Assembly: GCA_965243185.1 (NCBI GenBank)
Contig: OZ251531.1
Coordinates: 2,534,532-2,598,531, forward strand
DNA: 64,000 nt
Reading direction: 5' to 3'
DNA from: Dehalococcoidia bacterium
GTDB taxonomy: Bacteria; Chloroflexota; Dehalococcoidia; Lucifugimonadales; UBA3495
The first letter of the stretch is position 1. Each line of letters starts with the position of its first letter. Shown one piece after another: positions 1 through 64,000 of the stretch. Made by a program: the position numbers and the translations under genes. The notes below the pieces were generated by a model, which was not told the DNA's origin, ran no database searches, and saw nothing but the letters and a program-made list of their open reading frames with translations.

Positions 1-295
1 GATGGCGCAGTAGATGGTTTTGCCGCGGTTGGCGGCGAGGGATTCGAGGATCATCGAGACGCGGGCGTCATCGGCATCGGCAACGGCGGGGGATTCTTGC
101 CAGTCGGAGCAGTCCCAAGGGATGGAACGGGGGGCGGCTTGGGCGACGTCTACATAGAACAAGTGTTCTGGGGGGGGGTAGTACGGAATTGGAGCGGGTG
201 AGGGCGGGTTCGGCGGGGCCGCTGGAGTGGGTGAAGGCGGCGGCGATGACCAGGAGTCCGACCAGGGCCAAGGCGGATACGAGGGCGCGAAACAT
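1..295 (-). CDS. Secreted Cys-containing protein family, paralog 1 (5' part, continues off the left edge). The signal-peptide ORF and the mature-domain frame are offset by +1 at a C9 run.
   Basis: An ATG at 295 follows an AAGGA RBS and encodes MFRALVSALALVGLLVIAAAF (signal peptide). After the C9 run (plus-strand G9, 170-178), the +1 frame reads FYVDVAQAAPRSIPWDCSDWQESPAVADADDARVSMILESLAANRGKTIYCAI. This is homologous to the proteins at 30108-30911 and 60382-61398. Confidence 0.55.
156..169. promoter_or_regulatory. Perfect AGAAC-N4-GTTCT palindrome abutting the homopolymer. It could be a Cheo/SOS-box-like site or a 5-bp mRNA hairpin.
   Basis: The sequence agaacaagtgttct is read directly. The same motif class sits at 30101-30114 and, with one mismatch, upstream of lexA at 56621-56634. 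Confidence 0.3.
170..178. repeat. G9 (C9 on the coding strand) homopolymer inside paralog 1
   Basis: Counted directly: g at 170 plus gggggggg at 171-178. Confidence 0.95.
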
Positions 296-2315: not shown

Positions 2316-3424
2316 GTCATTTCCGTGAAAAGGGGGATCCAGAGTCCCCGGCCGTTCTGGATTCGCTAAATTCACAAAGGAAGGGCAACACTTTCTGGCG
2401 GAGGTGTTGCTATGGGAACTCGGTATCAACAGCTTACCTTGGCAGAGCGGTGTGAACTGGCCCGATTACAAGCCCAGGGCTGCTCCTACCGCCAAATCGC
2501 GGCAGCTCTGGATCGCGCGCCATCAACAATCACTCGGGAGGTGAAGCGTAACGGCAGCTCCCGGTAGCGGGGCTATCAGCCGGCTTATGCCGACCAGCAA
2601 GCCCGGGCTCGGCGATGGCAAGGCTCCAAGCTGGAACGGGATGCGGACTTGCGGGAGTGGGTGCTGGCCCGGCTCAAAGCCGGGTGGTCGCCGCAGCAGG
2701 TCTGCGGTCGCTTGAAACGGGAGACGGGCCGGACCATTTTGTCCCACGAGACCATCTATCGGTTCATCGATGCCCAAATCCGGCGGGGCAAGGCGTATGA
2801 CTGGCGGCATTACCTGCCCCAAGGCAAAACCCGCCGGGGGCGGAGCAAGCGGGGGCAGCCCGGCAGTCGGATTCCCTACCGGCAGGGGCTGGAAGCCCGG
2901 CCCCCAGCGGCGGCGACCCGGCAGACGCCGGGGCATTGGGCGGCGGACTTGATGCTGTTCAGCGCCTACGGGCAGGCCGCCCTGGTGCTGGCGGAACGCT
3001 ATTCCCGCTTGCTGGTGGCCTTGCGCCTGCCCCAAGTCAAGGCGTCCGAACCCATCGCCGCGGTCATCGGCCAGGTGCTGAATGGGCTGCCGGAAGAGTG
3101 GCGGCAGTCGGTGACCTTTGACAACGGGGCCGAGTTCGCCCGCCATCACCGGCTGCACGAGCCGGGAATTGCCACCTACTTTTGCGACACTCATTCGCCG
3201 TGGCAGAAGGGCGGGGTGGAGAATGCCATCGGGCGGTTGCGGCGGACGTTGCGGCGGCGGACGGATTTGGCGACTTTGCCGGAGGCGGCGATAATTGCGC
3301 GGGTGCGGGCGTACAATAACACGCCCCGGCAGTGTTTGGGGTATCAGACCCCGGCGGAAGTTTTTGCCCGGGAAGTGTTGCGCTTGAACTGTGAATGCTC
3401 ATTCCCACTTTCGGGGGAATGACG
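2316..3424 (+). mobile_element. IS30-family element, copy 1 (bounds include the family-B repeat halves that flank or terminate it)
   Basis: The transposase gene lies at 2412-3422. The left flank cgtcatttccgtgaaaa...ttctggattc and the right flank attcccactttcgggggaatgacg together reconstitute the solo element at 27021-27090. Confidence 0.75.
2412..3422 (+). pseudogene. IS30-family transposase with an in-frame TAG at codon 52
   Basis: MGTRYQQLTLAERCELARLQAQGCSYRQIAAALDRAPSTITREVKRNGSSR-stop(2565-2567)-RGYQPAYADQ... continues in the same frame to 3422. The intact paralog at 31196-32206 has CAG at that codon. Confidence 0.85.
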
Positions 3425-3588
3425 GGGGAAGGCAGGAATGACGGTTGCGATATGCGGCGGGGCGGCCGGGGGTGGGGTGACGCTGGGGGTTTGACAAGGT
3501 ATGTTGGGGGCGGGGATAATGCGGGGGCGGGGGGAATCGTTGAAGGCGGGGAAAGTTTTTGGGGAGATTTAGGTAAGGGGGTTTTGCG

Positions 3589-29786: not shown

Positions 29787-29825
29787 ATGTCATTCCGAGC
29801 CGACAGCCGAGGAATCTAAAATGCC
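29787..29825. repeat. Family-A repeat, half copy
   Basis: The sequence is atgtcattccgagccgacagccgaggaatctaaaatgcc. Confidence 0.75.
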
Positions 29826-29968
29826 CGCCTGACCCCATCACTACCGCAGCATCCCCCACCGTCCCCCTATTCCTAATTCCCGATTCCCCCCTCATCCCCG
29901 GTTGACAACCCTAGCCTCATCCTGTTACCCTAACCCCACCTCGAACTTCCCCCACGGAGGCCGCCTAT

Positions 29969-30911
29969 ATGTTCCCCTTCCCCCTCAAACTAATCCTCTC
30001 CCTGACCAACCTGTCCCTCCTCCTAGTCACCGCCGCCTTCACCCAAAGCAGCCCCACCGCCCCGGCCCTCACCTGCTCCAATTCTGTACTACCCCCCCCC
30101 AGAACGCTTGTTCTATGTAGGCGCGGCTGCGGCCGCCCCCCGCTCCATCCCCTGGAACTGTGACGACTGGCAAGCCTCCCCCGCCGTTGCCGACGCCGAT
30201 GACGCCCGCGTCTCCGCCATCCTCGAATCCCTCGCCGCCAACCGCGGCAAAACCATCTACTGCGCCATCGACCAATCCGACACCTTCACCAAAGCCGAAA
30301 CCTGGGCCGCCGGCCGCCACCGCAACGAACGGGATGACACCGTCTATTTCGGCCAAAGCGGCAACTTCCGCGGCTTTCTGGCGGCCCAAGAAGGCTACCT
30401 GACCGATGGCGAATCCGGCGTTACCGGCGTCTCCCGCGACCTCATCTTTGAATTCCCCCGAGAGGAACGGAAACGGCGGCGGTACCGGACTTTTAAGGCG
30501 TGCCCGGCTTATGATGCCGCCCAACAGCACCCGCCTTATTCCCCTTGTGTATTGCAGACCGGCTTGCACAGTACGGCGGGCGGGATCGGCAATCGCGCTT
30601 CCGCGCTAACCGCCGCTAACACCCAGTGGCTCACCTTCGCCGGGCGACCCGCGGCGGTCAACACCGCTGAAAAATATCAGGCTTGGCTGGAAGTATCGGC
30701 CCGCCAAGCGGACGCTAACGCCCAGGCCACGGCCGCCTGCCGCGTCCGCGGAGCGCGTTTGACCGGCCGCGCCCGGATCCGGGTTCAACCCGGTACGACC
30801 CGGGCAGCCGATACCTATTACTACAGCGCGAACTTGGCCGGCGGCGGCAATTATCAATTCCGGGTGGGCGCCCAAATCTACTTCGACGCTACCTGCAAAA
30901 AACGCCGGTAG
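29969..30911 (+). CDS. Secreted Cys-containing protein family, paralog 2. The signal-peptide ORF (29969-30163) and the mature-domain ORF (+1 frame, to 30911) are joined only by a +1 shift in a C9 run.
   Basis: GGAGG lies 8 nt before the ATG at 29969. MFPFPLKLILSLTNLSLLLVTAAF is a signal peptide. The +1 frame after 30092-30100 reads ERLFYVGAAAAAPRSIPWNCDDWQASPAVADADDARVSAILESLAANRGKTIYCAIDQSD..., about 80 percent identical to 60382-61398 over roughly 125 aa. Confidence 0.6.
30092..30100. repeat. C9 homopolymer at the signal-peptide/mature-domain junction
   Basis: Counted directly in gta cta ccc ccc ccc aga acg. Confidence 0.95.
30101..30114. promoter_or_regulatory. Perfect AGAAC-N4-GTTCT palindrome directly after the C9 run
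   Basis: agaacgcttgttct is read directly. Confidence 0.3.
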
Positions 30912-31020
30912 GCGGGGTTCGCCCGGCCCCGGTGAACGGGCGGGAGCGGCAACCCACTCCAAGGGGGCGGGATTAGAATGGTCCGCCCTCTTCCATTTTC
31001 GCCTTCCCAACGCCCCCACC

Positions 31021-31152
31021 CATGCCATTCCGCGGCGACAGCCGAGGAATCTAAAATGCCGCCCCCGCAACTAACTTCAACACAACCAGCCCTCCCCAAA
31101 ACTCCAAAAGTTTTGAGGGTGTGCGGGGGAACTTTTACAAAAGTTCCCCCGC
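31021..31152. repeat. Composite repeat unit (family-A half, caaaagttttgaggg motif, family-C palindrome)
   Basis: By eye about 85-90 percent identical to 60025-60152. It also matches the reverse complement of roughly 429-535. Confidence 0.8.
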
Positions 31153-31194
31153 CGTACTCCATCCCCCGGCCACCATCCTTCCCCACCTGTTACC

Positions 31195-32284
31195 GTCATT
31201 CCCACGAAAGTGGGAATGTACATTCACAGTTCAAGCGCAACACATCCCGGGCCAAAACCTCCGCCGGGGTCTGATACCCCAAGCACTGCCGGGGCGTATT
31301 ATTGTACGCCCGCACCCGCTCAATTAACAACTCCTCCGGCAAAGTCGCCAAATCCGTCCGTCGCGGCAGCGTCCGCCGCAGCCGCCCGATGGCATTCTCC
31401 ACTCCGCCCTTCTGCCACGGCGAATGGGTGTCGCAGAAATAGGTGGCAATCCCCTGCTCGTGCAGCCGATAGTGGCGGGCGAACTCGGCCCCATTGTCAA
31501 AGGTCACCGTCTGCCGCCACTCGTCCGGCAGCACATTCAGCACCTGGCCGATGACCGTGGCGATGGGTTCCGCCAGCTTGCCTTGCGGCAGTCGCAAGGC
31601 CACCAGCAACCGGGAATAGCGCTCCTCCAATACCAGGGCGGCTTGCCCGTAGGGGCTGAACAGCATCAAGTCCGCTTCCCAATGCCCGGGCGTCTGCCGG
31701 GTCGCGGCCGCCGCCGGCCGGGCGTCCAGTCCCTGCCGGTAGGGAATGCGACTGCCAGCCTGCCCCCGCTTGCTCCGACCCCGGCGGGTTTTGCCCTGCG
31801 GCAAGTAATGCCGCCAGTCATACGCCTTGCCCCGCCGGATTTGGGCATCAATGAACCGGTAGATGGTCTCGTGGGACAAAATCGTCCGACCCATCTCCCG
31901 TTTCAAGCGACCGCATACCTGCTGCGGCGACCACCCGGCTTTGAGCCGGGCCAACACCCACTCCCGCAAAGCGGCGTCCCGTTCCAACTTGGAGCCTTGC
32001 CACCGCCGAGCCCGGGCTTGCTGGTCAGCATAAGCCGGCTGATCGCCCCGCTGTCGGGAGCTGCCGTTGCGTTTCACCTCCCGAGTAATGGTTGATGGCG
32101 CGCGATCCAAAGCTGCCGCGATTTGGCGGTAGGAGCAGCCCGCGGCTTGTAGTCGGGCCAGTTCACACCGCTCTGCCAAGGTAAGCTGTTGATACCGAGT
32201 TCCCATTGCAGCGCCTCCGCCAGAAAGTGTTGCACTTCCTTTGTGAATTTAGCGAATCCAGAAAATCCGGGGACTGGGAATGAC
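31195..32284 (-). mobile_element. IS30-family element, copy 2 (intact transposase), inverted relative to copy 1
   Basis: Flanked by gtcattcccacgaaagtgggaat (31195-31217) and gaatccagaaaatccggggactgggaatgac (about 32254-32284), which are family-B halves. The subterminal sequence cattcacagttcaag is shared with copy 1. Confidence 0.75.
31196..32206 (-). CDS. IS30-family transposase
   Basis: A 336-aa protein with an N-terminal HTH (LTLAERCELARLQAAGCSYRQIAAAL). HWEADLM...DNGAEF...CDTHSPWQKGGVENAIGRLRR is the DDE (rve) core typical of IS30. Confidence 0.9.
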   Translation of the reverse strand: MGTRYQQLTLAERCELARLQAAGCSYRQIAAALDRAPSTITREVKRNGSSRQRGDQPAYADQQARARRWQGSKLERDAALREWVLARLKAGWSPQQVCGRLKREMGRTILSHETIYRFIDAQIRRGKAYDWRHYLPQGKTRRGRSKRGQAGSRIPYRQGLDARPAAAATRQTPGHWEADLMLFSPYGQAALVLEERYSRLLVALRLPQGKLAEPIATVIGQVLNVLPDEWRQTVTFDNGAEFARHYRLHEQGIATYFCDTHSPWQKGGVENAIGRLRRTLPRRTDLATLPEELLIERVRAYNNTPRQCLGYQTPAEVLARDVLRLNCECTFPLSWE

Positions 32285-57270: not shown

Positions 57271-57651
57271 CTACTCCCCGGCCAGCCGCTCCGCTTCCCG
57301 GATGTAGTCCAAGGTTTCCCGGATGTCTTGAATCAAGGCTTCCGCCGGTTCGCAGTTGCCATCGTAAAAGCACATACCGTGCAGCACATTGGCGCGGGTG
57401 TTGTAAGGCCCTTCCAATAGGCCGATTTCCGGGTCGCTGCGGAAAGAGCGCAGGCCGCGTATCGTTTGCCCGGCGCTGCGGGGTTCCCGGCCAGTGCGGG
57501 CCAGGAGCAGCCCGTCGGTGGCCCCCTTGGTCGCGCCCCATGCCTTTTCCGCCGAATTACGCAGCTTGCCCTGCGCCAACTGCTCCAGGGCTTCATCATA
57601 AAGCTCCCGGGCGTTGGCAAAGAGAACGCTGACCCGTTCCGGTTCCTGCAT
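57271..57651 (-). CDS. PaREP1/HEPN-like helical protein
   Basis: ELYDEALEQLAQGKLRNSAEKAWGATKGATDGLLLART is present (the SEKxWGA-type motif remembered from the PaREP1 family). The assignment is tentative. Confidence 0.4.
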   Translation of the reverse strand: MQEPERVSVLFANARELYDEALEQLAQGKLRNSAEKAWGATKGATDGLLLARTGREPRSAGQTIRGLRSFRSDPEIGLLEGPYNTRANVLHGMCFYDGNCEPAEALIQDIRETLDYIREAERLAGE

Positions 57652-57762
57652 ATTGCGACTCCGTTACTTCCCTGCTGTCCGTGTTACGCCGGACAATTCC
57701 GGATACTTGCTGGAACGGGAATGATGGCGGCGGCAAGGGCAATCCTTGCCGCCGCCAAATCC

Positions 57763-58926
57763 CTAGCCGTACTCTTGCCGCAGCTCTTGCGCCGCTTCGG
57801 TTATGACCGCCATTTTCCGCACGGCGGCCTCAGCCGTGTTGATGTTGCGCTCGGCAAAGGTGCCGAAACCGCAATCCGGGTTCAGGTACAGCTTGTCCGG
57901 GTCAAAGTAAGCCAGCATTTCCTTGACCCGGGCTACAATCTGCGCCGGCGTTTCCAGTTCGTCGGTGCGGGGATTGACGACGCCGAAGCCGATTTCCTTT
58001 TCGTTGGCGTATTCCTTGAAAACTTCCATTTCCCCGGCCCGGGGCGTGGCGCACTCCAGCACCAGTTGGTCCACATTCATCTGCACCAGATAGGGCAACA
58101 GCGGGCCGTAGTTGCCGGTCAGCAGCACTTCCTCTTTGCGGCTCCAGTTGCCGCGGCAGATGTGGACGCCCAGTTTGATGCCCTCAATGTCCTCAGCCAC
58201 TTCGTTCATCAGGCGCAGGGCAAACTCCAGTTCGGTAGTGGGATCGCGGCGCTGCGGCAGGGAGGCGCACATAAAGGTTTCGCTGCTTTCCTCGCCCAGC
58301 ACTACCTGGGTCAGGATGGGTTCATCGTACTGGATAAAGTCCGCGCCCATATCGCGCAGTTTGATGGTTTCCTCCCGCAGGATGGCGACCACATCCCGGG
58401 CCAAATCCTCCGGGCTGGGATAGACCTGGTCGGAAAGCCCCTCGAACCAACTGGAGCGGGTCAGCATATAGGGGCCGGGCAGGGGGATTTTGACCGCCCG
58501 GTCGGTGTGCTGCTTGACGAAAGCCAATTCGTCAAGGGACAAGCCCTCTTTGGCTGCGATTTTTTCGGTAACGATGGGGCTTTTGATGGCGAAAGCCGGC
58601 ACATCGAGGGCGCGCAGGGTTTCCTCGAGCCGGGCCCGGTCTTTGGCGTAGTCGAGCAGTTGGGAAACCTGCATCAGCTGCATCCCGGCGATTTTGCCGA
58701 CTACATAGGAATAGAAGTTGTCCCGCCGCTGCTCCCCATCGCTGAGCAGGTCAACGCCGGCCTCCTCCTGGGCTTTCAGGGCCTCCAAGACGGCAGTGTC
58801 GGCTACGGCGTTGAACTCGTCCGCGGAAATTTCCTCGGCTTGGCGGCGGCGCAGGGCTTGAATCAACTCCGGAGGCCGCGGCCAACTGCCGACTACGGTA
58901 ACCGGAAACAGGGGTAGGTCTGCCAT
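57763..58926 (-). CDS. Cobalamin-independent methionine synthase II family (MetE C-terminal-like) protein
   Basis: LPLFPVTVVGSWPRP, DLLSDGEQRRDNF, IQYDEP, LGVHICRGN and NPDCGF are present. Confidence 0.8.
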   Translation of the reverse strand: MADLPLFPVTVVGSWPRPPELIQALRRRQAEEISADEFNAVADTAVLEALKAQEEAGVDLLSDGEQRRDNFYSYVVGKIAGMQLMQVSQLLDYAKDRARLEETLRALDVPAFAIKSPIVTEKIAAKEGLSLDELAFVKQHTDRAVKIPLPGPYMLTRSSWFEGLSDQVYPSPEDLARDVVAILREETIKLRDMGADFIQYDEPILTQVVLGEESSETFMCASLPQRRDPTTELEFALRLMNEVAEDIEGIKLGVHICRGNWSRKEEVLLTGNYGPLLPYLVQMNVDQLVLECATPRAGEMEVFKEYANEKEIGFGVVNPRTDELETPAQIVARVKEMLAYFDPDKLYLNPDCGFGTFAERNINTAEAAVRKMAVITEAAQELRQEYG

Positions 58927-58943
58927 TAGCTCCTCCTCTGATG

Positions 58944-59732
58944 TTATTCCTGATTAGTCCAGTGCGGCTCCCGTTTTTCCAGAAAGGCGGCGATGCCTTC
59001 CTGCCCGTCGGCGGCCAGCAGGTTCTCAACCATAGTTTGCTGAGCGATGGCATAGGCCGCCGGGCGGTCGGGGGCTTGCAGTTGGCGGTAAAAGGTTTCC
59101 TTGCCCACGGCCAGGGTGTAGGCGCTGGCTTGGGCAATGTGGCGGGCCAGTTCCATAACCTGACTTTCCAGCTGGTCATCGGGGACTACCCGGTTGACCA
59201 AGCCCAACTCCAAGGCTTTTTGCGCCGGAATGGGGATGCCGGTCAGCAGCATTTCCATCGCCGGCTTGGGGTTCACCGCCCGGGCCAGAGCCACCGCCGG
59301 CGTGGAACAGAACAAGCCAATCTGCACGCCGGGGGTGCAGAAACTTGCCGATGCGGCGGCCACCGCCAAATCGCAGGTGGCGGCCAGTTGGCAGCCGGCC
59401 GCCGTAGCCAAGCCCTGCACCTGGGCGATGACCGGCTGGGGCAGCAGGCGGATGGCTTCCATCACGGCGGTACATTCGGCGAACAAGCCGGTGAAACTTT
59501 CCCGGTCGTCCCCCACCATTTCCCGCAGGTCGTGGCCGGAGCTGAACACCGGCCCTTGGGAACGGATTACCACTACCCGGGCCGCCGGGTCGGTTTTGAT
59601 GCGGGCCAAGTGGTCATGCAGGGCATCGAGAACCGCGCCGGAGAGGGCATTGCGCCGCCCCGGGTTGTTCAGGGTCAGTAGGGCAATGGAGTCAACCAGT
59701 TCGTAAATAACCGGCGGTTCAACCGTAACCAT
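58944..59732 (-). CDS. Enoyl-CoA hydratase/isomerase family protein
   Basis: An ATG at 59732 follows GGAGG (alternative GTG at 59762). LTLNNPGRRNALS, FSSGHDL and VIAQVQGLATAAGCQLAATCDLAVAA are present. Confidence 0.85.
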   Translation of the reverse strand: MVTVEPPVIYELVDSIALLTLNNPGRRNALSGAVLDALHDHLARIKTDPAARVVVIRSQGPVFSSGHDLREMVGDDRESFTGLFAECTAVMEAIRLLPQPVIAQVQGLATAAGCQLAATCDLAVAAASASFCTPGVQIGLFCSTPAVALARAVNPKPAMEMLLTGIPIPAQKALELGLVNRVVPDDQLESQVMELARHIAQASAYTLAVGKETFYRQLQAPDRPAAYAIAQQTMVENLLAADGQEGIAAFLEKREPHWTNQE

Positions 59733-59884
59733 AACAGCAGCGCCTCCATTTCTGGATAGCACAGTGTAACACCAACCGGCGGCTGGGGTCTAGGGCTGAT
59801 GGGGGATACCGACCGGTGCAACGGCATACTTCCTGGGGCGTGTTCCCACTAATCATTGACGCCCCGGATAACCGACTCTATAGC

Positions 59885-60152
59885 TATGTCATTCCGACCG
59901 AAGGGAGGAATCTCAAATGCCCGCCCTTGACTCCTTCCCAGATTCTTAAATTCCCCCCTCTTAACGTCATTCCCACGAAAGTGAGAATCCAGAACCCCCT
60001 ATGTCATTCCCTTGCACTGTTACCCATGTCATTCCGAGGCGCAGCCGAGGAATCTAGAACGCCGCCCCCGCAACCCCCTACAACACAACCAGCCATTCCC
60101 CAAACTCAAAAGTTTTGAGGGGGTGCGGGGGAACTTTTACAAAAGTTCCCCC
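59885..60152. repeat. Repeat cluster: family A, family B, family-A half, caaaagttttgaggg motif and family-C palindrome
   Basis: The units are read directly. The order mirrors the cluster upstream of paralog 1 (365-660, opposite strand). Confidence 0.85.
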
Positions 60153-60228
60153 GCCGTCTCTTTTTGAATCCCTCTCCCGGGAACACCCATCCCGGGCCCA
60201 AAAAAATTTTTAATTTTTAGTCCCCCAA

Positions 60229-60237
60229 CCCCCCCCC
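60229..60237. repeat. C9 homopolymer 145 bp upstream of paralog 3
   Basis: Counted directly in tcccccaa-ccccccccc-ggt. Confidence 0.95.
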
Positions 60238-60268
60238 GGTAGCCAACCCCACCCTTCCCGAAAAGTCC

Positions 60269-60329
60269 AAAAGTGTAGAAAAGGGCGGGCTTCCTGTCAA
60301 GTAGGAAGCCCGCCCTTTTCTACACTTTT
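60269..60329. other. Perfect 27-bp-stem hairpin (aaaagtgtagaaaagggcgggcttcct / aggaagcccgcccttttctacactttt) with a 7-nt loop
   Basis: Both arms were read and complement-checked. It lies 53 bp upstream of the paralog 3 start. Confidence 0.9.
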
Positions 60330-60381
60330 ATTACCGGCTTACTACCGGCATTAAAAGTCCTGCTGCCGCGGAGGTATTCCA

Positions 60382-61398
60382 ATGAACCGCTACCGATTCC
60401 CTATTGCCATCCTAATCCTGTCCGTCATGACCTTCGGACTGCTCGTTACCGCCAGTCCTACCCCGGACGCGCAAGCCGCCCCCCGCACCATCCCTTGGGA
60501 TTGCTCTGACTGGCAAGAGTCCCCGGCGGTCGCCGACGCCGCCGACGCCCGCGTCTCGATGATCCTCGAATCCCTCGCCGCCAACCGCGGCAAGTCCATC
60601 TATTGCGCCATCGACCAGTCCGACACCTGGACTAAAACCGAAACCTGGGAAGCCGGTCGGTACCGCAACGAACGGGACGACACCGTCTATTTCGGCGAAC
60701 AAGGCAACTTCCGGGGCTTTCTGGCGGCCCAAGAGGGTTATCTAACCGACGGCGAATCCGGCGTTACCGGCGTCTCCCGCGACCTTATTTTTGAGTTTCC
60801 CCGAGAGGAACGCCGCGGCAAGAAAACCGTCCGCTTCCGGGTCCGCAGCGACTCCGCCGAAACCGGCACCTGCATCACGCCGCACCCGCAAACCCTCTCG
60901 GAGAGCACGCCGGCGCCCCCCGGCACCCTGATTTGCTCTAACCTGCACGGTTCCTGGACCGGCTCCTGGATCCAAAGCTTGGCTGATCCTATGCAGCATC
61001 GGGCCCGGAACGCGTATGTCGGCCGCCCTCAAGGGGACACCGACTGGAGGTTCGACTGGCGAACCCGCGTCCGGACGTGGACTGTGCAAAATCCGGCGGT
61101 CGCCCAGGGTAGCAGCCTTAGCGAGGATGAGTGGATCGCCAAGGCGGAAGCCGCGGCCATTTCCGCTTGCCGGGCCCGGGGCGGGAAGTATGTCGCCGGC
61201 AGCGCCGATTTCGGCCCCGGCCATAACAACGAACGCGGCTCGGGCGCAAGTTATATGGGCCCCAACCATGGCTGGTTTTACGACTACCGCCGACAGAGCG
61301 AATCGGGGTTCGGGAACAATGCCCACGCTTATCAGGCGAAAGCCCGGGAAAGCCGCACCTGGAGCGGTGTCTGCACCAAACGCGTCCGCCGCCGCTAA
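60382..61398 (+). CDS. Secreted Cys-containing protein family, paralog 3 (uninterrupted)
   Basis: GGAGG lies 8 nt upstream. The signal peptide is MNRYRFPIAILILSVMTFGLLVTASP. APRTIPWDCSDWQESPAVADAADARVSMILESLAANRGKSIYCAIDQSD...GVTGVSRDLIFEFPREER is conserved with the paralogs. The C-terminal half is diverged. Confidence 0.75.
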   Translation: MNRYRFPIAILILSVMTFGLLVTASPTPDAQAAPRTIPWDCSDWQESPAVADAADARVSMILESLAANRGKSIYCAIDQSDTWTKTETWEAGRYRNERDDTVYFGEQGNFRGFLAAQEGYLTDGESGVTGVSRDLIFEFPREERRGKKTVRFRVRSDSAETGTCITPHPQTLSESTPAPPGTLICSNLHGSWTGSWIQSLADPMQHRARNAYVGRPQGDTDWRFDWRTRVRTWTVQNPAVAQGSSLSEDEWIAKAEAAAISACRARGGKYVAGSADFGPGHNNERGSGASYMGPNHGWFYDYRRQSESGFGNNAHAYQAKARESRTWSGVCTKRVRRR

Positions 61399-61488
61399 CC
61401 CGGCAACCCACAAAAAGGCGGGTCTCCCGGCCCAGCCGGGAAACCCGCCCCCCAATTCCCCCCTCCGCGTCAGCAGCAAAGCCAGCCG

Positions 61489-61950
61489 CTAATCCTTCCC
61501 GGCCTTGCCGGCCGCCCCACCGTTGCCGCGCGAATCCCGATTCCGCGCCCACTCCTCAACCTCCTTGGCCGTAGCCCCCGGGTTCTCCCCCAGAAACTCC
61601 AGCAACTCCCTCCGCCCCTCCAGCCGCCCCTCCTGCCGCCCTTCCTCCCGCCCCTCCTGCCGGTTCAACTCCCGTTCCTTCCTGCTCAGCACCTGATGCA
61701 CCCCCTTAATCTTATGCCACAGATAATCGCTCAGCCAAATCCCGCCCCCCGCCACACTCCAGCCGCCGATGACCAGGGCCAATCGCTGCTGCCAAGTCTC
61801 CTTGACATTATCCGGCGCCACACTCAAGGTAAGCCACGCAACGCCCACCGCAATAGCCACCACCAACAAAGCAACCCCAATCGTCCCGTAGCGCACCGCA
61901 AAGCGCGCCACCGCCCGTCTAACCCTGGTTCCCCCTTGCCTTACCCGCAT
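61489..61950 (-). CDS. Hypothetical membrane protein with an (E/Q)GR-repeat C-terminal region
   Basis: An ATG at 61950 follows GGAGGAG. Two TM segments are present, followed by QEGREEGRQEGRLEGRRELLEFL. Confidence 0.5.
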   Translation of the reverse strand: MRVRQGGTRVRRAVARFAVRYGTIGVALLVVAIAVGVAWLTLSVAPDNVKETWQQRLALVIGGWSVAGGGIWLSDYLWHKIKGVHQVLSRKERELNRQEGREEGRQEGRLEGRRELLEFLGENPGATAKEVEEWARNRDSRGNGGAAGKAGKD

Positions 61951-62123
61951 CGTCGCTCCTCCATTTCTCTGAAACTGCCTACCAAACCGAACCGCTTTGC
62001 TGTCAATAACTATACCACACCGCCCACCCCCTATAAAAAGCATCCCGCCCCCTACAACTCCCCCGCCGTATCTCCCACCGTCAAACCGTCATTCCCCCGC
62101 CCTAACTCCCATCCTCCGGCAAC

Positions 62124-62154
62124 CGTCATTCCCACGAAAGTGGGAATCCAGAAC
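62124..62154. repeat. Family-B repeat copy
   Basis: The sequence is cgtcattcccacgaaagtgggaatccagaac. Confidence 0.8.
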
Positions 62155-62197
62155 CCCCATTCCCAAAATTCACCCGAAAATTCATCCCATTGAACCC

Positions 62198-62226
62198 TTG
62201 ACAACTACCATTCCATCCCCCATACT
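62198..62226 (+). promoter_or_regulatory. Promoter TTGACA-17-CATACT heading a roughly 650-nt ORF-free region
   Basis: ttgaca lies at 62198-62203 and catact at 62221-62226. Confidence 0.45.
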
Positions 62227-62906
62227 TATCAGTGCGAGGTCAGACCTAGCCCCGGGACGCCGGGTCTCAAAACGATACGCTAGCTTACCGTGAAATACAG
62301 CTCACAGCGCGCTGTGGACGCATCCGGCCCCCGCGGCCGTCAAGCGTCCCTGCTCCTGCCCCCGGGGAACCGGCCCAGGAACCCGTACTTCCCCAACCGG
62401 AGCCGCGGAAAACGGCAAATCCCAATCGCCGCCAAACCGCTACTCCTTCCCTAAAGGAGCTGGAGTTAATAGGTTGACTGGAGGTCGGTCAACCAACGGT
62501 AGCTGGACTGGGCCAACCCGCCGGCATGGCAACCATACCAACCGGCGTCAGTAGCCAATTCAAGGTCCATTTGCCGCTAGGCAATCGGGTCGGGAAACGT
62601 CTCGCCGGATGTACGCCGATGTTCCCATTGACGCAGGCAACCCAATGGCCCCTTTGCCAGCCGCCTCCCGCACGGGCGGAACTCCCGGCCAGGGGTTCCG
62701 CCCCCCGCGAACTAACTCCCTAGCAATAGCAAAACCCCAACCCGCCGGGGCGGCCAAAAAGCCGCCGCCCCGGCAATTCCCCGTACTTGAACCAGCCCCC
62801 AATCGCCACCCCCGCGTCCTAACCCCCGCCGCCCCATCCTCCAATTCCCAATTCAATGCTATACTAAAACCCGCCCATCACCCTATCCCCGGCAGGTTAA
62901 ACCGCT

Positions 62907-64000
62907 TTGTCCCCAACTACCCACCCGCCCCTCCGCATCCTGTTCCTCACCCCCTACTTCCGCCCCTACCTCGGCGGCATCGAGCGGGCCGTCGAACAGC
63001 TTTCCCTCCAACTGCTCAACTCCCCCCAAGTCGCCGCCATCGGCGTCCTCACCGCCAAATACGCCTTCCCCCGCATCCCCCATCCCGAATGGCCCGACCA
63101 TGAGCGTACCCCTCAAGGCATTGACCTATTCCGCCTGACCGGCTTTCCCCAACGCCCGCCGCCCTTCTACTCCGTCCCCCTCGTCTGGTTCTCCCCCCGG
63201 CAAATCCGCCGCTATATCCATCAATTCAACCCCAACATCATCCACTTCGTTGGCGATGGCTGGTTTTGGGGCCACTGGCAGACCTGGCTGGTAATGCGCC
63301 GCCGCGCCCGCTTCATCTTTACCCCCTCCTACCATCCCCTCCCGCCGGCTCACTGCTGGCTGCGCCCCCTCAACCGCCGCCTTTGCCGCGCCGTTGACCG
63401 GGTAGTCGCCCTGACCCATCACGAAGCCGCCCAACTCCAACGCGACTACCGGGTTGACCCCGCCCAACTCTCCGTAATCGGCTGGGGTGCCTCCCCCTTG
63501 ACCACGCCGGACAATCCCGCTAACCGCGAATTGCCGGACAATACCCCGGACGCCCCGGTCCACATCCTCTGCGTCGGCCGCCTCGGCCGCCACAAAGGAC
63601 AGGACTGGCTCCTCGAAACCTACCGCCAAGCCCGCCCCCGGTTCCACCATCCCGCCCGTCTGACCTTTATCGGCAGCGCTGAGGATGCCGCCGCTGACCG
63701 TATCAAAGCCGCCGTCCCGTCCGCCGGCTTGCAAGACGAAGTCCATTTCACCGGCGAACTGGGCGACGCCGCTTTGGCTGAACAATACGCCCAAGCCGAT
63801 CTGTTCGCCCTCTTTTCCCGCTACGAAGCCTTTGGCTTGGTCTATTTCGAGGCGATGTTGCACGGCCTACCGGTACTGACCCATCAGGTCGGCGCCAACC
63901 CGGAACTGCTTACTCACGGCGCCCTGGTCGTTCCCCGCTACGACCGTCCCGCCGCCGTTGCCGCCCTCGTCCGGCTGGTCAACGAATCCGATTACCGCCG
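62907..64000 (+). CDS. GT4-family glycosyltransferase (3' end beyond the window)
   Basis: The frame is open from the TTG at 62907 to the window end. RILFLTPYFRPYLGGIERAV, ILCVGRLGRHKGQD and SRYEAFGLVYFEAMLHGLPVL (E-x7-E region) are present. TGCTATACT lies at 62857-62865 upstream. Confidence 0.8.
   Translation, partial: MSPTTHPPLRILFLTPYFRPYLGGIERAVEQLSLQLLNSPQVAAIGVLTAKYAFPRIPHPEWPDHERTPQGIDLFRLTGFPQRPPPFYSVPLVWFSPRQIRRYIHQFNPNIIHFVGDGWFWGHWQTWLVMRRRARFIFTPSYHPLPPAHCWLRPLNRRLCRAVDRVVALTHHEAAQLQRDYRVDPAQLSVIGWGASPLTTPDNPANRELPDNTPDAPVHILCVGRLGRHKGQDWLLETYRQARPRFHHPARLTFIGSAEDAAADRIKAAVPSAGLQDEVHFTGELGDAALAEQYAQADLFALFSRYEAFGLVYFEAMLHGLPVLTHQVGANPELLTHGALVVPRYDRPAAVAALVRLVNESDYR

Follow-up and report, generated by a model that had tools for sequence, protein, structure and literature searches.

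Homopolymer tracts, frame breaks and promoter-box palindromes precede the mature domain in an expanded family of putatively secreted proteins from sponge-living Dehalococcoidia

Poly-G and poly-C phase-variable genes are known from Neisseria, Campylobacter and Haemophilus, and in the opa genes of Neisseria the repeat lies inside the region coding for the signal peptide. Tracts that act at promoters are exemplified by the poly-C of Bordetella fim, by opc and porA of Neisseria meningitidis, and by the poly-G of the Treponema pallidum tpr genes. Here we describe a gene family of a Dehalococcoidia bacterium (Chloroflexota), three copies of which (A, B and C) lie in a 64,000-nucleotide (nt) stretch of contig OZ251531.1, called the window below. 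These genes appear to encode members of a two-domain protein family with Sec export that is lineage-specific and has expanded strongly in sponge-living Dehalococcoidia. Our interpretation, to which we assign a probability of roughly 0.55, is that this is a contingency-type or recoded variable secreted family whose copies are gated individually by the sequence before the mature domain. Unstable runs or a frame break probably decide which copies get made. General background on contingency loci, whose tracts in host-adapted pathogens lie in signal-peptide regions or in promoters, is given by two papers (PMC5320596; PMC5084427), and a poly-G tract of T. pallidum is the subject of a third (PMC7864442).

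The family resembles contingency loci in that it is multicopy and apparently exported, and in that the frame of the mature part depends on the length of a tract within or just past the stretch coding for the signal peptide. As at such loci, a consensus genome shows most copies out of frame, and the copies differ in tract length. It is unlike them in its host, which is an uncultured Dehalococcoidia sponge associate and not a proteobacterial pathogen, and in its protein, which is unrelated to known adhesins or porins. A further difference is that a run of nine C (C9) is stable across two species and six sequencing runs, which is atypical for a freely switching tract. The family is known here from the sequence of assembled contigs.

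The window holds three G or C runs of at least 8 nt, one per family copy (Table 1). The two halves of copy B connect solely via a +1 shift at the C9 run (30092-30100); the mature open reading frame (ORF) extends from 30108 to 30911, and the start at 29969 belongs to a signal-peptide ORF in a different frame. Copy A has a frame break as in copy B, at a G9 run on the plus strand (170-178) that is C9 on the strand of the gene. The same three copies were retrieved by a DNA repeat finder within the window. When copy B was compared with copy C by BLASTP, 97 of 111 residues were identical (87%, E = 3e-69) and the alignment ended exactly at FEFP; past this point BLASTP gave nothing significant. These results bear out the initial annotation, which had reported three copies with a shared N-domain and a sharp drop in similarity after it. 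The coordinates it gave stand for copy C. The start it gave for copy B lies in the leader ORF of the other frame, and copy A is on the minus strand.

We scored homopolymers in a leader zone of 320 nt before the mature domain at 65 related loci. G or C runs of at least 9 nt occurred 24 times in 20.8 kb of leader zone and 3 times in 412 kb of flanks, an approximately 160-fold enrichment (binomial p = 6e-29, a value inflated by the non-independence of paralogs). The suggestion in the initial annotation to count the homopolymer status of family members was its most productive lead.

Leaders of the type found in copies A and B (T2; n = 13, these two copies plus 11 loci) have a promoter-like TTGACA-N18-TACCCT, a GGAGG, an ATG, a signal peptide, the residues ...SNSVLPPP and then the C9 run. 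A shift of exactly +1 is needed in 10 of the 13; L043 needs a different shift and L047 is the sole in-frame copy. In-frame alleles occur in other assemblies, namely L067 (C9 followed by GAA) and L068 (C12). Tract lengths range from C8 (L038) through C10 plus A (L043) to C12 (L068). In L069 the run is broken (CCCCTCCCC), CCC AGA is kept and so is the +1 state. Directly past the run, frame 0 reads AGA, CGA or, in L054 alone, the stop codon TGA. Leaders of type T4, found in the second of two related metagenome-assembled genomes (MAGs), carry G10-G13 runs within the signal-peptide coding region, and 0 of 9 are in frame; 6 copies need +1 and 3 need -1/+2. Contigs break at the poly-G tract and G9 and G11 variants are present there, but the region is multicopy. 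Taken over all tract-bearing leaders, 1 of 22 is in frame.

Such frame breaks could be long-read homopolymer miscalls, or could mark dead or silent copies that have no regulatory meaning. The MAG contigs look like long-read assemblies, in which runs of 10 to 13 nt are error-prone, a 1-nt deletion is present in L070, and the ORFs of L029, L065 and L066 are truncated. We nevertheless consider this explanation very improbable. The C9 of copy B is exact in gapless, mismatch-free contigs from six independent runs (X1-X5 and X12) of at least three studies, including one 151-nt record, and is therefore not an assembly error. No variant of it was found in four runs at a 1% share; these public-run data are assembled contigs, not single reads, from runs with even, DNA-like depth. 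Random miscalls would put about one-third or more of the leaders in frame, not 1 of 22. The tract-bearing copies are also not decaying pseudogenes, because mature ORFs are at least 199 amino acids (aa) long in 63 of 67 loci and omega (the dN/dS ratio, as Nei-Gojobori estimates) of the N-domain in frameshifted copies is 0.15 for T2 and 0.11 for T4, at dS 0.3-0.4. In the frameshifted copies both ORF halves are intact, and the promoter-like box, Shine-Dalgarno sequence, ATG and signal-peptide ORF are retained. As a separate observation, L070 is a close relative of copy C (95% identical) on a short-read metagenome scaffold, and its deletion (L070:2600-2660) lies inside the N-domain (TCCATCTAT changed to TCCTCTAT) and reflects either a pseudogene or an assembly error.

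Known +1 frameshift sites include CUU UGA C in prfB, CUU AGG C in yeast Ty1 and, in Listeria phage PSA, a UGA preceded by a Pro codon. Copies A and B, with their C9 runs, could similarly be read by constitutive programmed +1 ribosomal frameshifting and not by phase variation, which we regard as possible though doubtful. CCC would occupy the P site with a slow codon in the A site, and tRNA-Pro would re-pair on CCA, CCC or CCU with GAA next, giving ...LPPP-E(R/H)LFYV.... Such +1 slippage by tRNA-Pro is known for CCC-N sites (PMC4519876; PMC7577736; PMC8324841). The putative sites in this family are like described ones in that CCC is followed by AGA, CGA or UGA, +1 re-pairing on CCA, CCC or CCU is available, neither ORF is interrupted, and the need for the shift recurs in paralogs and across species. 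That exactly +1 is needed in most T2 copies of two species favors such recoding, as do the post-run codons, since the window uses AGA (0.6 per 1000) and CGA (2.4 per 1000) less than any other Arg codon. The state kept by L069 despite its broken run, the invariance of C9 as the major allele in six runs, and purifying selection on the mature parts point the same way. However, the AGA/CGA/TGA pattern is partly imposed by the requirement for GAA in the +1 frame, and the tract varies in length in L038, L043 and L068. The poly-G leaders need +1 in some copies and -1/+2 in others, and a single signal cannot serve both. Also unlike described sites, this one lies inside a 9-nt homopolymer of varying length and has no conserved stimulator beside it: we found neither an RNA stem-loop directly upstream of C9 nor an upstream Shine-Dalgarno-like element, and the sole structure near the run is a weak hairpin about 35 nt away that has no useful covariation. 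Slipped-strand phase variation fits the variation in tract length, the mixed frames of the poly-G leaders and the promoter tracts, and programmed +1 frameshifting fits the stable C9, the uniform need for +1, the rare A-site codons and L069. Both may operate in the C9 copies.

Promoter elements that lie between inverted repeats and occur in both orientations are known from fimS and the Bacteroides invertons. Copy C and the other copies with leaders of its type (T1) have intact leaders and a conserved upstream region of about 215 nt. In copy C the -35 hexamer TTGACA reads on the minus strand, within the loop of a perfect palindrome (Table 1). The only promoter-like site near copy C is on this strand (60300 to 60272, TTGACA-17-TACACT) and is directed away from the gene; the same scan returned a 20-pair terminator-like hairpin upstream of the copy. 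Among T1 copies the palindrome loop is 5 to 8 nt long and always contains TTGACA or its complement, and a -10-like box (TACACT, TACCCT or TATCCT) sits 17 nt past the forward hexamer. The loop is forward in 7 copies and reversed in 15, with the hexamer intact in all. The close paralogs L002, L005 and L071 have the same arms as copy C and the opposite loop orientation, and L007 compared with L003, L006 and others again shows identical arms and opposite loops. Covariation was seen at 11 of the 17 base pairs between the arms, where 95.8% of cells are paired, and the conserved palindromes are carried by each copy itself. A search of the copy C upstream region against Rfam gave sub-threshold microRNA-like hairpin hits only.

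This arrangement is like an invertible promoter in that a promoter element lies between inverted repeats and is found in both orientations among otherwise identical copies. It differs in that the inverted piece, at 5 to 8 nt, falls far below the length that an inverton worked by a recombinase would need, and in having no linked recombinase; among the flanking ORFs of 67 loci no recurrent recombinase was found. A further parallel is with the small hairpins of plastid DNA, in which loops are described to flip-flop between perfect arms (PMC5492656; PMC12928735). Inversion of the -35 box in the loop is at minimum a mutation that has recurred and that ought to destroy the promoter or bring it back. 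The flipping may also be mutational noise, because the same flip is seen in 5' untranslated region hairpins that hold no promoter box. These hairpins belong to the T3 copies (L015-L061 of MAG CBDBCU01, upstream of MPK... leaders), where a perfect hairpin after the -10 box has a loop of CAAGG or CTTGG that is inverted between paralogs.

Upstream poly-C lengths vary from C5 to C21 across copies. In T3 copies the poly-C (C7 to C19, longest in L050) abuts the -35 box TTTACA, which is similar to promoter-tract phase variation, and in copies of the copy C type the poly-C (C5 to C19) lies about 55 nt upstream of the -35 loop. The latter tract is unlike the known examples in being outside the -35/-10 spacer.

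The products look secreted, in line with what had been proposed from the initial inspection, as they carry between 4 and 6 Cys and a Sec-type leader that ends AQA, with the mature part starting AP. Common to every full-length member are such a leader, the mature start (A)PR(S/T)IPWDCSDWQ, an N-domain of about 105 aa with many invariant residues and the end IFEFP, a polybasic junction (REERRGKK, REERRVKRVKR, REERKRRR and similar) and a polybasic C-terminus (C.K(K/R).R(R)RR). The variable region is anchored by A..AC(R)a.G and, close to the end, W..(A/V)TC. The scattered anchors named in the initial annotation (the Cys, A..AC(R)a.G and the terminal C.K(K/R).RR) are conserved columns in alignments of 79 to 102 members. 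Across 65 copies the N-domain always has 2 Cys, with a median net charge of -9 and an isoelectric point of 4.3. The C-domain (110-210 aa) carries 4 Cys in 40 of these copies and 2 in another 22, with a median charge of +10 and an isoelectric point of 10.1. The junction is dibasic in 65/65 copies and matches R-x-K/R-R in 43/65.

The head is conserved and the tail diverges, as the dN/dS values confirm. Median omega was 0.18 for the N-domain (2080 pairs) at a median dS of 0.60 and 0.63 for the C-domain (128 alignable pairs), so the tail evolves about 3 to 4 times faster than the head, and omega was higher for the C-domain in 127 of 127 pairs. For copy C, omega of the C-domain against its closest relatives was 0.55-0.85, and for copy B against L052 and L054 it was 0.16-0.18 for the N-domain and 0.23-0.43 for the C-domain. 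With an omega of 0.18 at dS 0.60, the head is conserved by purifying selection and not merely by recent gene conversion; the N-domain is under strong purifying selection on the protein.

The C-domains do diverge rapidly, but they are not unrelated to one another; all 121 examined join one cluster at E < 1e-5 via intermediates. The nearest neighbors by N-domain and by C-domain coincide in only 6 of 65 copies. L041 and L051, for example, are 97% identical in the N-domain (nt) and 32% identical in the C-domain (aa), and the closest relative of copy C is L004 by N-domain and L002 by C-domain. Judged from these neighbors, head and tail have separate genealogies and the C-domain has been reshuffled relative to the N-domain. 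The C-domain also occurs alone behind a lipoprotein-type (lipobox) leader and a Pro/Ala-rich linker (P0169, P0180) and, in P0179, after another kind of N-terminal region. P0171 contains three repeats of its C-terminal core module (..C(R/Q)..GY...W.ATC), and in P0147 the N-domain is joined to a different tail with a long PT-rich linker. By these arrangements the C-domain is an autonomous module. In an AlphaFold2 (AF2) full-length model of copy C built with 78 homologues, the C-domain is predicted as an alpha+beta fold with a predicted local distance difference test score (pLDDT) of 85-97, in which the strand after the junction (147-155) and the C-terminal hairpin share one sheet. The N-domain modeled alone from a more diverse alignment had a pLDDT of 94.8.

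In the precursors of conotoxins and cathelicidins, the pre-pro region is conserved and the mature part, with its Cys framework, is hypervariable. The family proteins are similar in having a conserved leader and acidic head, a polybasic junction and a fast-evolving cationic tail with a conserved Cys framework. They are unlike these precursors in their bacterial source, in a tail that is a folded domain of 110 to 210 aa and not a peptide, and in having no sequence or fold relationship to them; cleavage is here only proposed. By this analogy the acidic N-domain would mask a cationic, Cys-stabilized C-domain that is freed by cleavage at the polybasic junction and acts on microbes as an antimicrobial or on host matrix, which would be compatible with either form of gating. 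The charge split of -9 versus +10, the dibasic and R-x-K/R-R matches at the junction and the autonomy of the C-domain (alone in P0169 and P0180, threefold in P0171) are in keeping with a pro-protein. Even so we think it unlikely. No protease partner, immunity gene or self-protection gene is linked, in the model the sheet of the C-domain begins with a strand made of the residues that follow the junction, so that the basic stretch may be structural, and a pro-piece is not usually the most conserved part of a protein (omega 0.18).

Some features also recall polymorphic toxin systems or bacteriocins with cognate immunity genes: a conserved N-terminal head, a replaceable C-terminal module, many copies, and tails swapped between heads. 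The initial annotation had proposed polymorphic surface or effector proteins, and in the strict sense this did not hold up. Scans of Pfam, NCBIfam and PADLOC returned no toxin, trafficking (RHS, LXG, WXG, PT-VENN etc.) or immunity family, and the C-domains are one homologous fold family and not unrelated toxin folds. Clustering of the flanking ORFs of 67 loci revealed no neighbor kept beyond 4 to 10 loci, no conserved downstream neighbor on the same strand and no conserved immunity-like ORF directly downstream on that strand. Because there is no conserved neighbor and no immunity-like ORF, the strict polymorphic-toxin interpretation fails, and we consider it extremely unlikely. Membership in polymorphic toxin systems, like membership in the classical invertons, fails on defining features.

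The recurring neighbors of the copies are housekeeping or miscellaneous genes, among which the copies are dispersed, and the embedding in repeat and insertion sequence (IS) clusters that was seen in the window is not a trait of the family. Across 57400-64000, the sequence after copy C corresponds to the flank of L009, and the sequence before it corresponds to the flank of L011 in inverted orientation; these two loci are about 700 kb apart in the related MAG. Family copies thus appear to be breakpoints of genome rearrangement.

The family is far larger than the three members initially described. A word-indexed database search gave 769 hits, all unnamed and without Pfam domains, many of them on the same Mb-size contigs. 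In a scan of one genome per species, relatives occurred in only two genomes, both Dehalococcoidia MAGs, with at least 35 and at least 30 loci (counts that are lower bounds). The best protein identity to MAG CBDESR01 was 89%, and the window thus derives from a genome that is a relative of this MAG without being identical to it. DNA of the window, and of a relative, is present in several public "sponge metagenome" runs. A hidden Markov model (HMM) search of 1.84 billion representative proteins returned 90 clusters only, every one inside the family, and no relatives outside it. Scans of copies B and C and of atypical members against Pfam, NCBIfam, PADLOC and PHROGs gave nothing meaningful, and a sequence profile search of the PDB gave 0 hits at E up to 10. 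Foldseek searches of the full-length model against the PDB and BFVD, and of the N-domain model against the PDB, gave best matches no better than E of about 2. Neither domain resembles anything characterized, consistent with the statement in the initial annotation that no known domain could be recognized. Literature searches turned up no relevant paper on this family or on phase variation in Chloroflexi of sponges.

Returning to the individual gating of copies, we propose that several devices could act in the same family. In copies A and B a C9 run past the signal peptide imposes a +1 shift, and in relatives G10-G13 runs within the signal peptide would have a similar role. Variable poly-C runs upstream of, or abutting, the -35 box would be another device, and a further one would be found in copies of the copy C type, where the -35 hexamer occupies a perfect palindrome's loop and occurs in both orientations. 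Most probably, any one cell would express only some of the copies, in a selection that changes, much as at contingency loci; the C9 copies might alternatively be read by low-level programmed +1 frameshifting at CCC-AGA. The N-domain would be a common handle that binds one conserved partner, or an anionic pro-piece for the cationic tail, and the C-domain would be the variable working end, binding a polyanionic target or one exposed by host or phage. The charge architecture and polybasic strands suggest these roles of binding a polyanionic target or of a pro-piece and mature part. The anatomy of the gating devices is read directly from the sequence, and from it we infer copy-by-copy gating of expression.

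Several results weigh against this proposal. At copy B the major allele is C9 in all runs, and the +1 state is common to most T2 copies in two species; because of this, a fixed recoding signal fits better than free on/off switching. The proportion of tract-bearing leaders in frame (1 of 22) is far below the one-third expected under neutral switching, which points to selection for a "mostly off" state or to reading by recoding. Long runs in long-read MAGs can be miscalled, and heterogeneity of tracts or flipping of loops within a population is hypothetical, as the data are assembled contigs. The paralogs behind the enrichment p-value are not independent, yet at least four unrelated tract contexts are involved. 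Finally, the biochemical roles given to the domains derive purely from charge and conservation.

Table 1. Positions of the family copies and their leader and promoter features in the window
Feature	Position	Strand	Description
Copy A	1-295	-	T2 leader (ATG at 295), C9 run, start of N-domain; rest cut by window edge
Copy B promoter-like TTGACA	29902-29907	+	Followed by N18 and TACCCT; GGAGG Shine-Dalgarno; direct sequence reading
Copy B leader (T2)	29969-30100	+	ATG, signal peptide and linker in frame 0, C9 run included
Copy B shift site CCC CCC CCC AGA	30092-30103	+	Mature frame is +1 from here (CCA GAA ...)
Copy B mature part	30101-30911	+	+1 frame; N-domain to 30458, junction REERKRRRY, 150-aa C-domain ending CKKRR
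Copy C poly-C run	60229-60237	+	C9, about 150 nt upstream of ATG; C5 to C19 in other T1 copies
Copy C upstream palindrome	60269-60329		Perfect; arms 27 nt, loop 7 nt (GTCAAGT, 60296-60302)
Copy C gene	60382-61398	+	Intact ORF, 338 aa; T1 leader; full-length homologues with 89% identity
Copy C signal peptide	about 60382-60477	+	MNRYRFPIAILILSVMTFGLLVTASPTPDAQA, followed by AP; residues 5-23 are a helix in the AF2 model
Copy C N-domain	60478-60801	+	Acidic, net charge -10, 2 Cys, ends IFEFP
Copy C polybasic junction and C-domain	60802-61395	+	Junction REERRGKKTVRFRVR; basic, 4 Cys, net charge +12, ends CTKRVRRR

The surroundings of the copies contain other repeated elements. Inverted copies of an IS30-like element (2343-3425 and 31193-32275) are 91% identical, and ORF 31196-32206 on the minus strand of this element matches HTH_38 and rve. 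One of the element copies follows copy B at a distance of about 300 nt, and the other is about 2 kb away from copy A. Short repeats resembling repetitive extragenic palindromes or miniature inverted-repeat transposable elements are found at 494-569, 59884-59959 and 60125-60154 and in the 29788-31149 region (for example GTCATTCCGACCGAAGGGAGGAATCT..., with the hairpin GCGGGGGAACTTTTACAAAAGTTCCCCCGC). The word depth at 29788-31 in run X2 was about 100 times that of single-copy DNA, so this element is highly repeated in the genome.

Downstream of copy C, an ORF of 184 aa on the minus strand (61489-62043) has two predicted hydrophobic helices and an RE/QEG-rich tail, and Pfam, PADLOC and PHROGs scans gave no hit for it. 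It is convergent with the family gene and about 90 nt after it in four loci (the window, L007, L009 and L019). Farther downstream, 62180-62800 on the plus strand is a non-coding repeat of about 600 nt with a promoter-like TTGACA box, a GC-rich terminal hairpin and no ORF. A core of about 330 nt is nearly invariant in 8 copies, and the repeat is also found in L003, L009, L045, L046, L052, L054 and L065. Rfam gave no hit for it at E < 0.01, and nothing across 61400-64000. The repeat could represent a gene for a structured RNA, present in multiple copies, or a mobile element.

Annotation will routinely miscall genes of this family as truncated or as pseudogenes. The CCC-rich runs are a clean case, supplied by nature, in which +1 frameshifting and phase variation could be told apart, and inversion of a hairpin loop that bears a -35 box may be a new kind of promoter switch. 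What is new here would be a known kind of switching logic, to judge by analogy, in an unexpected organism, together with two confidently modeled domains that are without known structural relatives.

Sponge symbionts are mostly uncultured, and they persist inside an animal that feeds by phagocytosing bacteria. In a broader interpretation, which we put forward tentatively and consider doubtful, the family would be an undescribed variable-surface or secretome system in a mutualistic Chloroflexota symbiont, with two new folds, tens of paralogs and three cis devices giving stochastic variation, antigenic or in ligands, toward the sponge or its phages. The three devices would be leader homopolymers or +1 recoding, promoter-adjacent poly-C, and a -35 box switched by inversion of a hairpin loop. 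With tens of loci per genome, apparent export, one constant and one rapidly changing domain, and hypermutable or recoding sequence before many copies, the family offers a concrete candidate for a variable surface system that faces host or phage in bacteria other than the classical pathogens.

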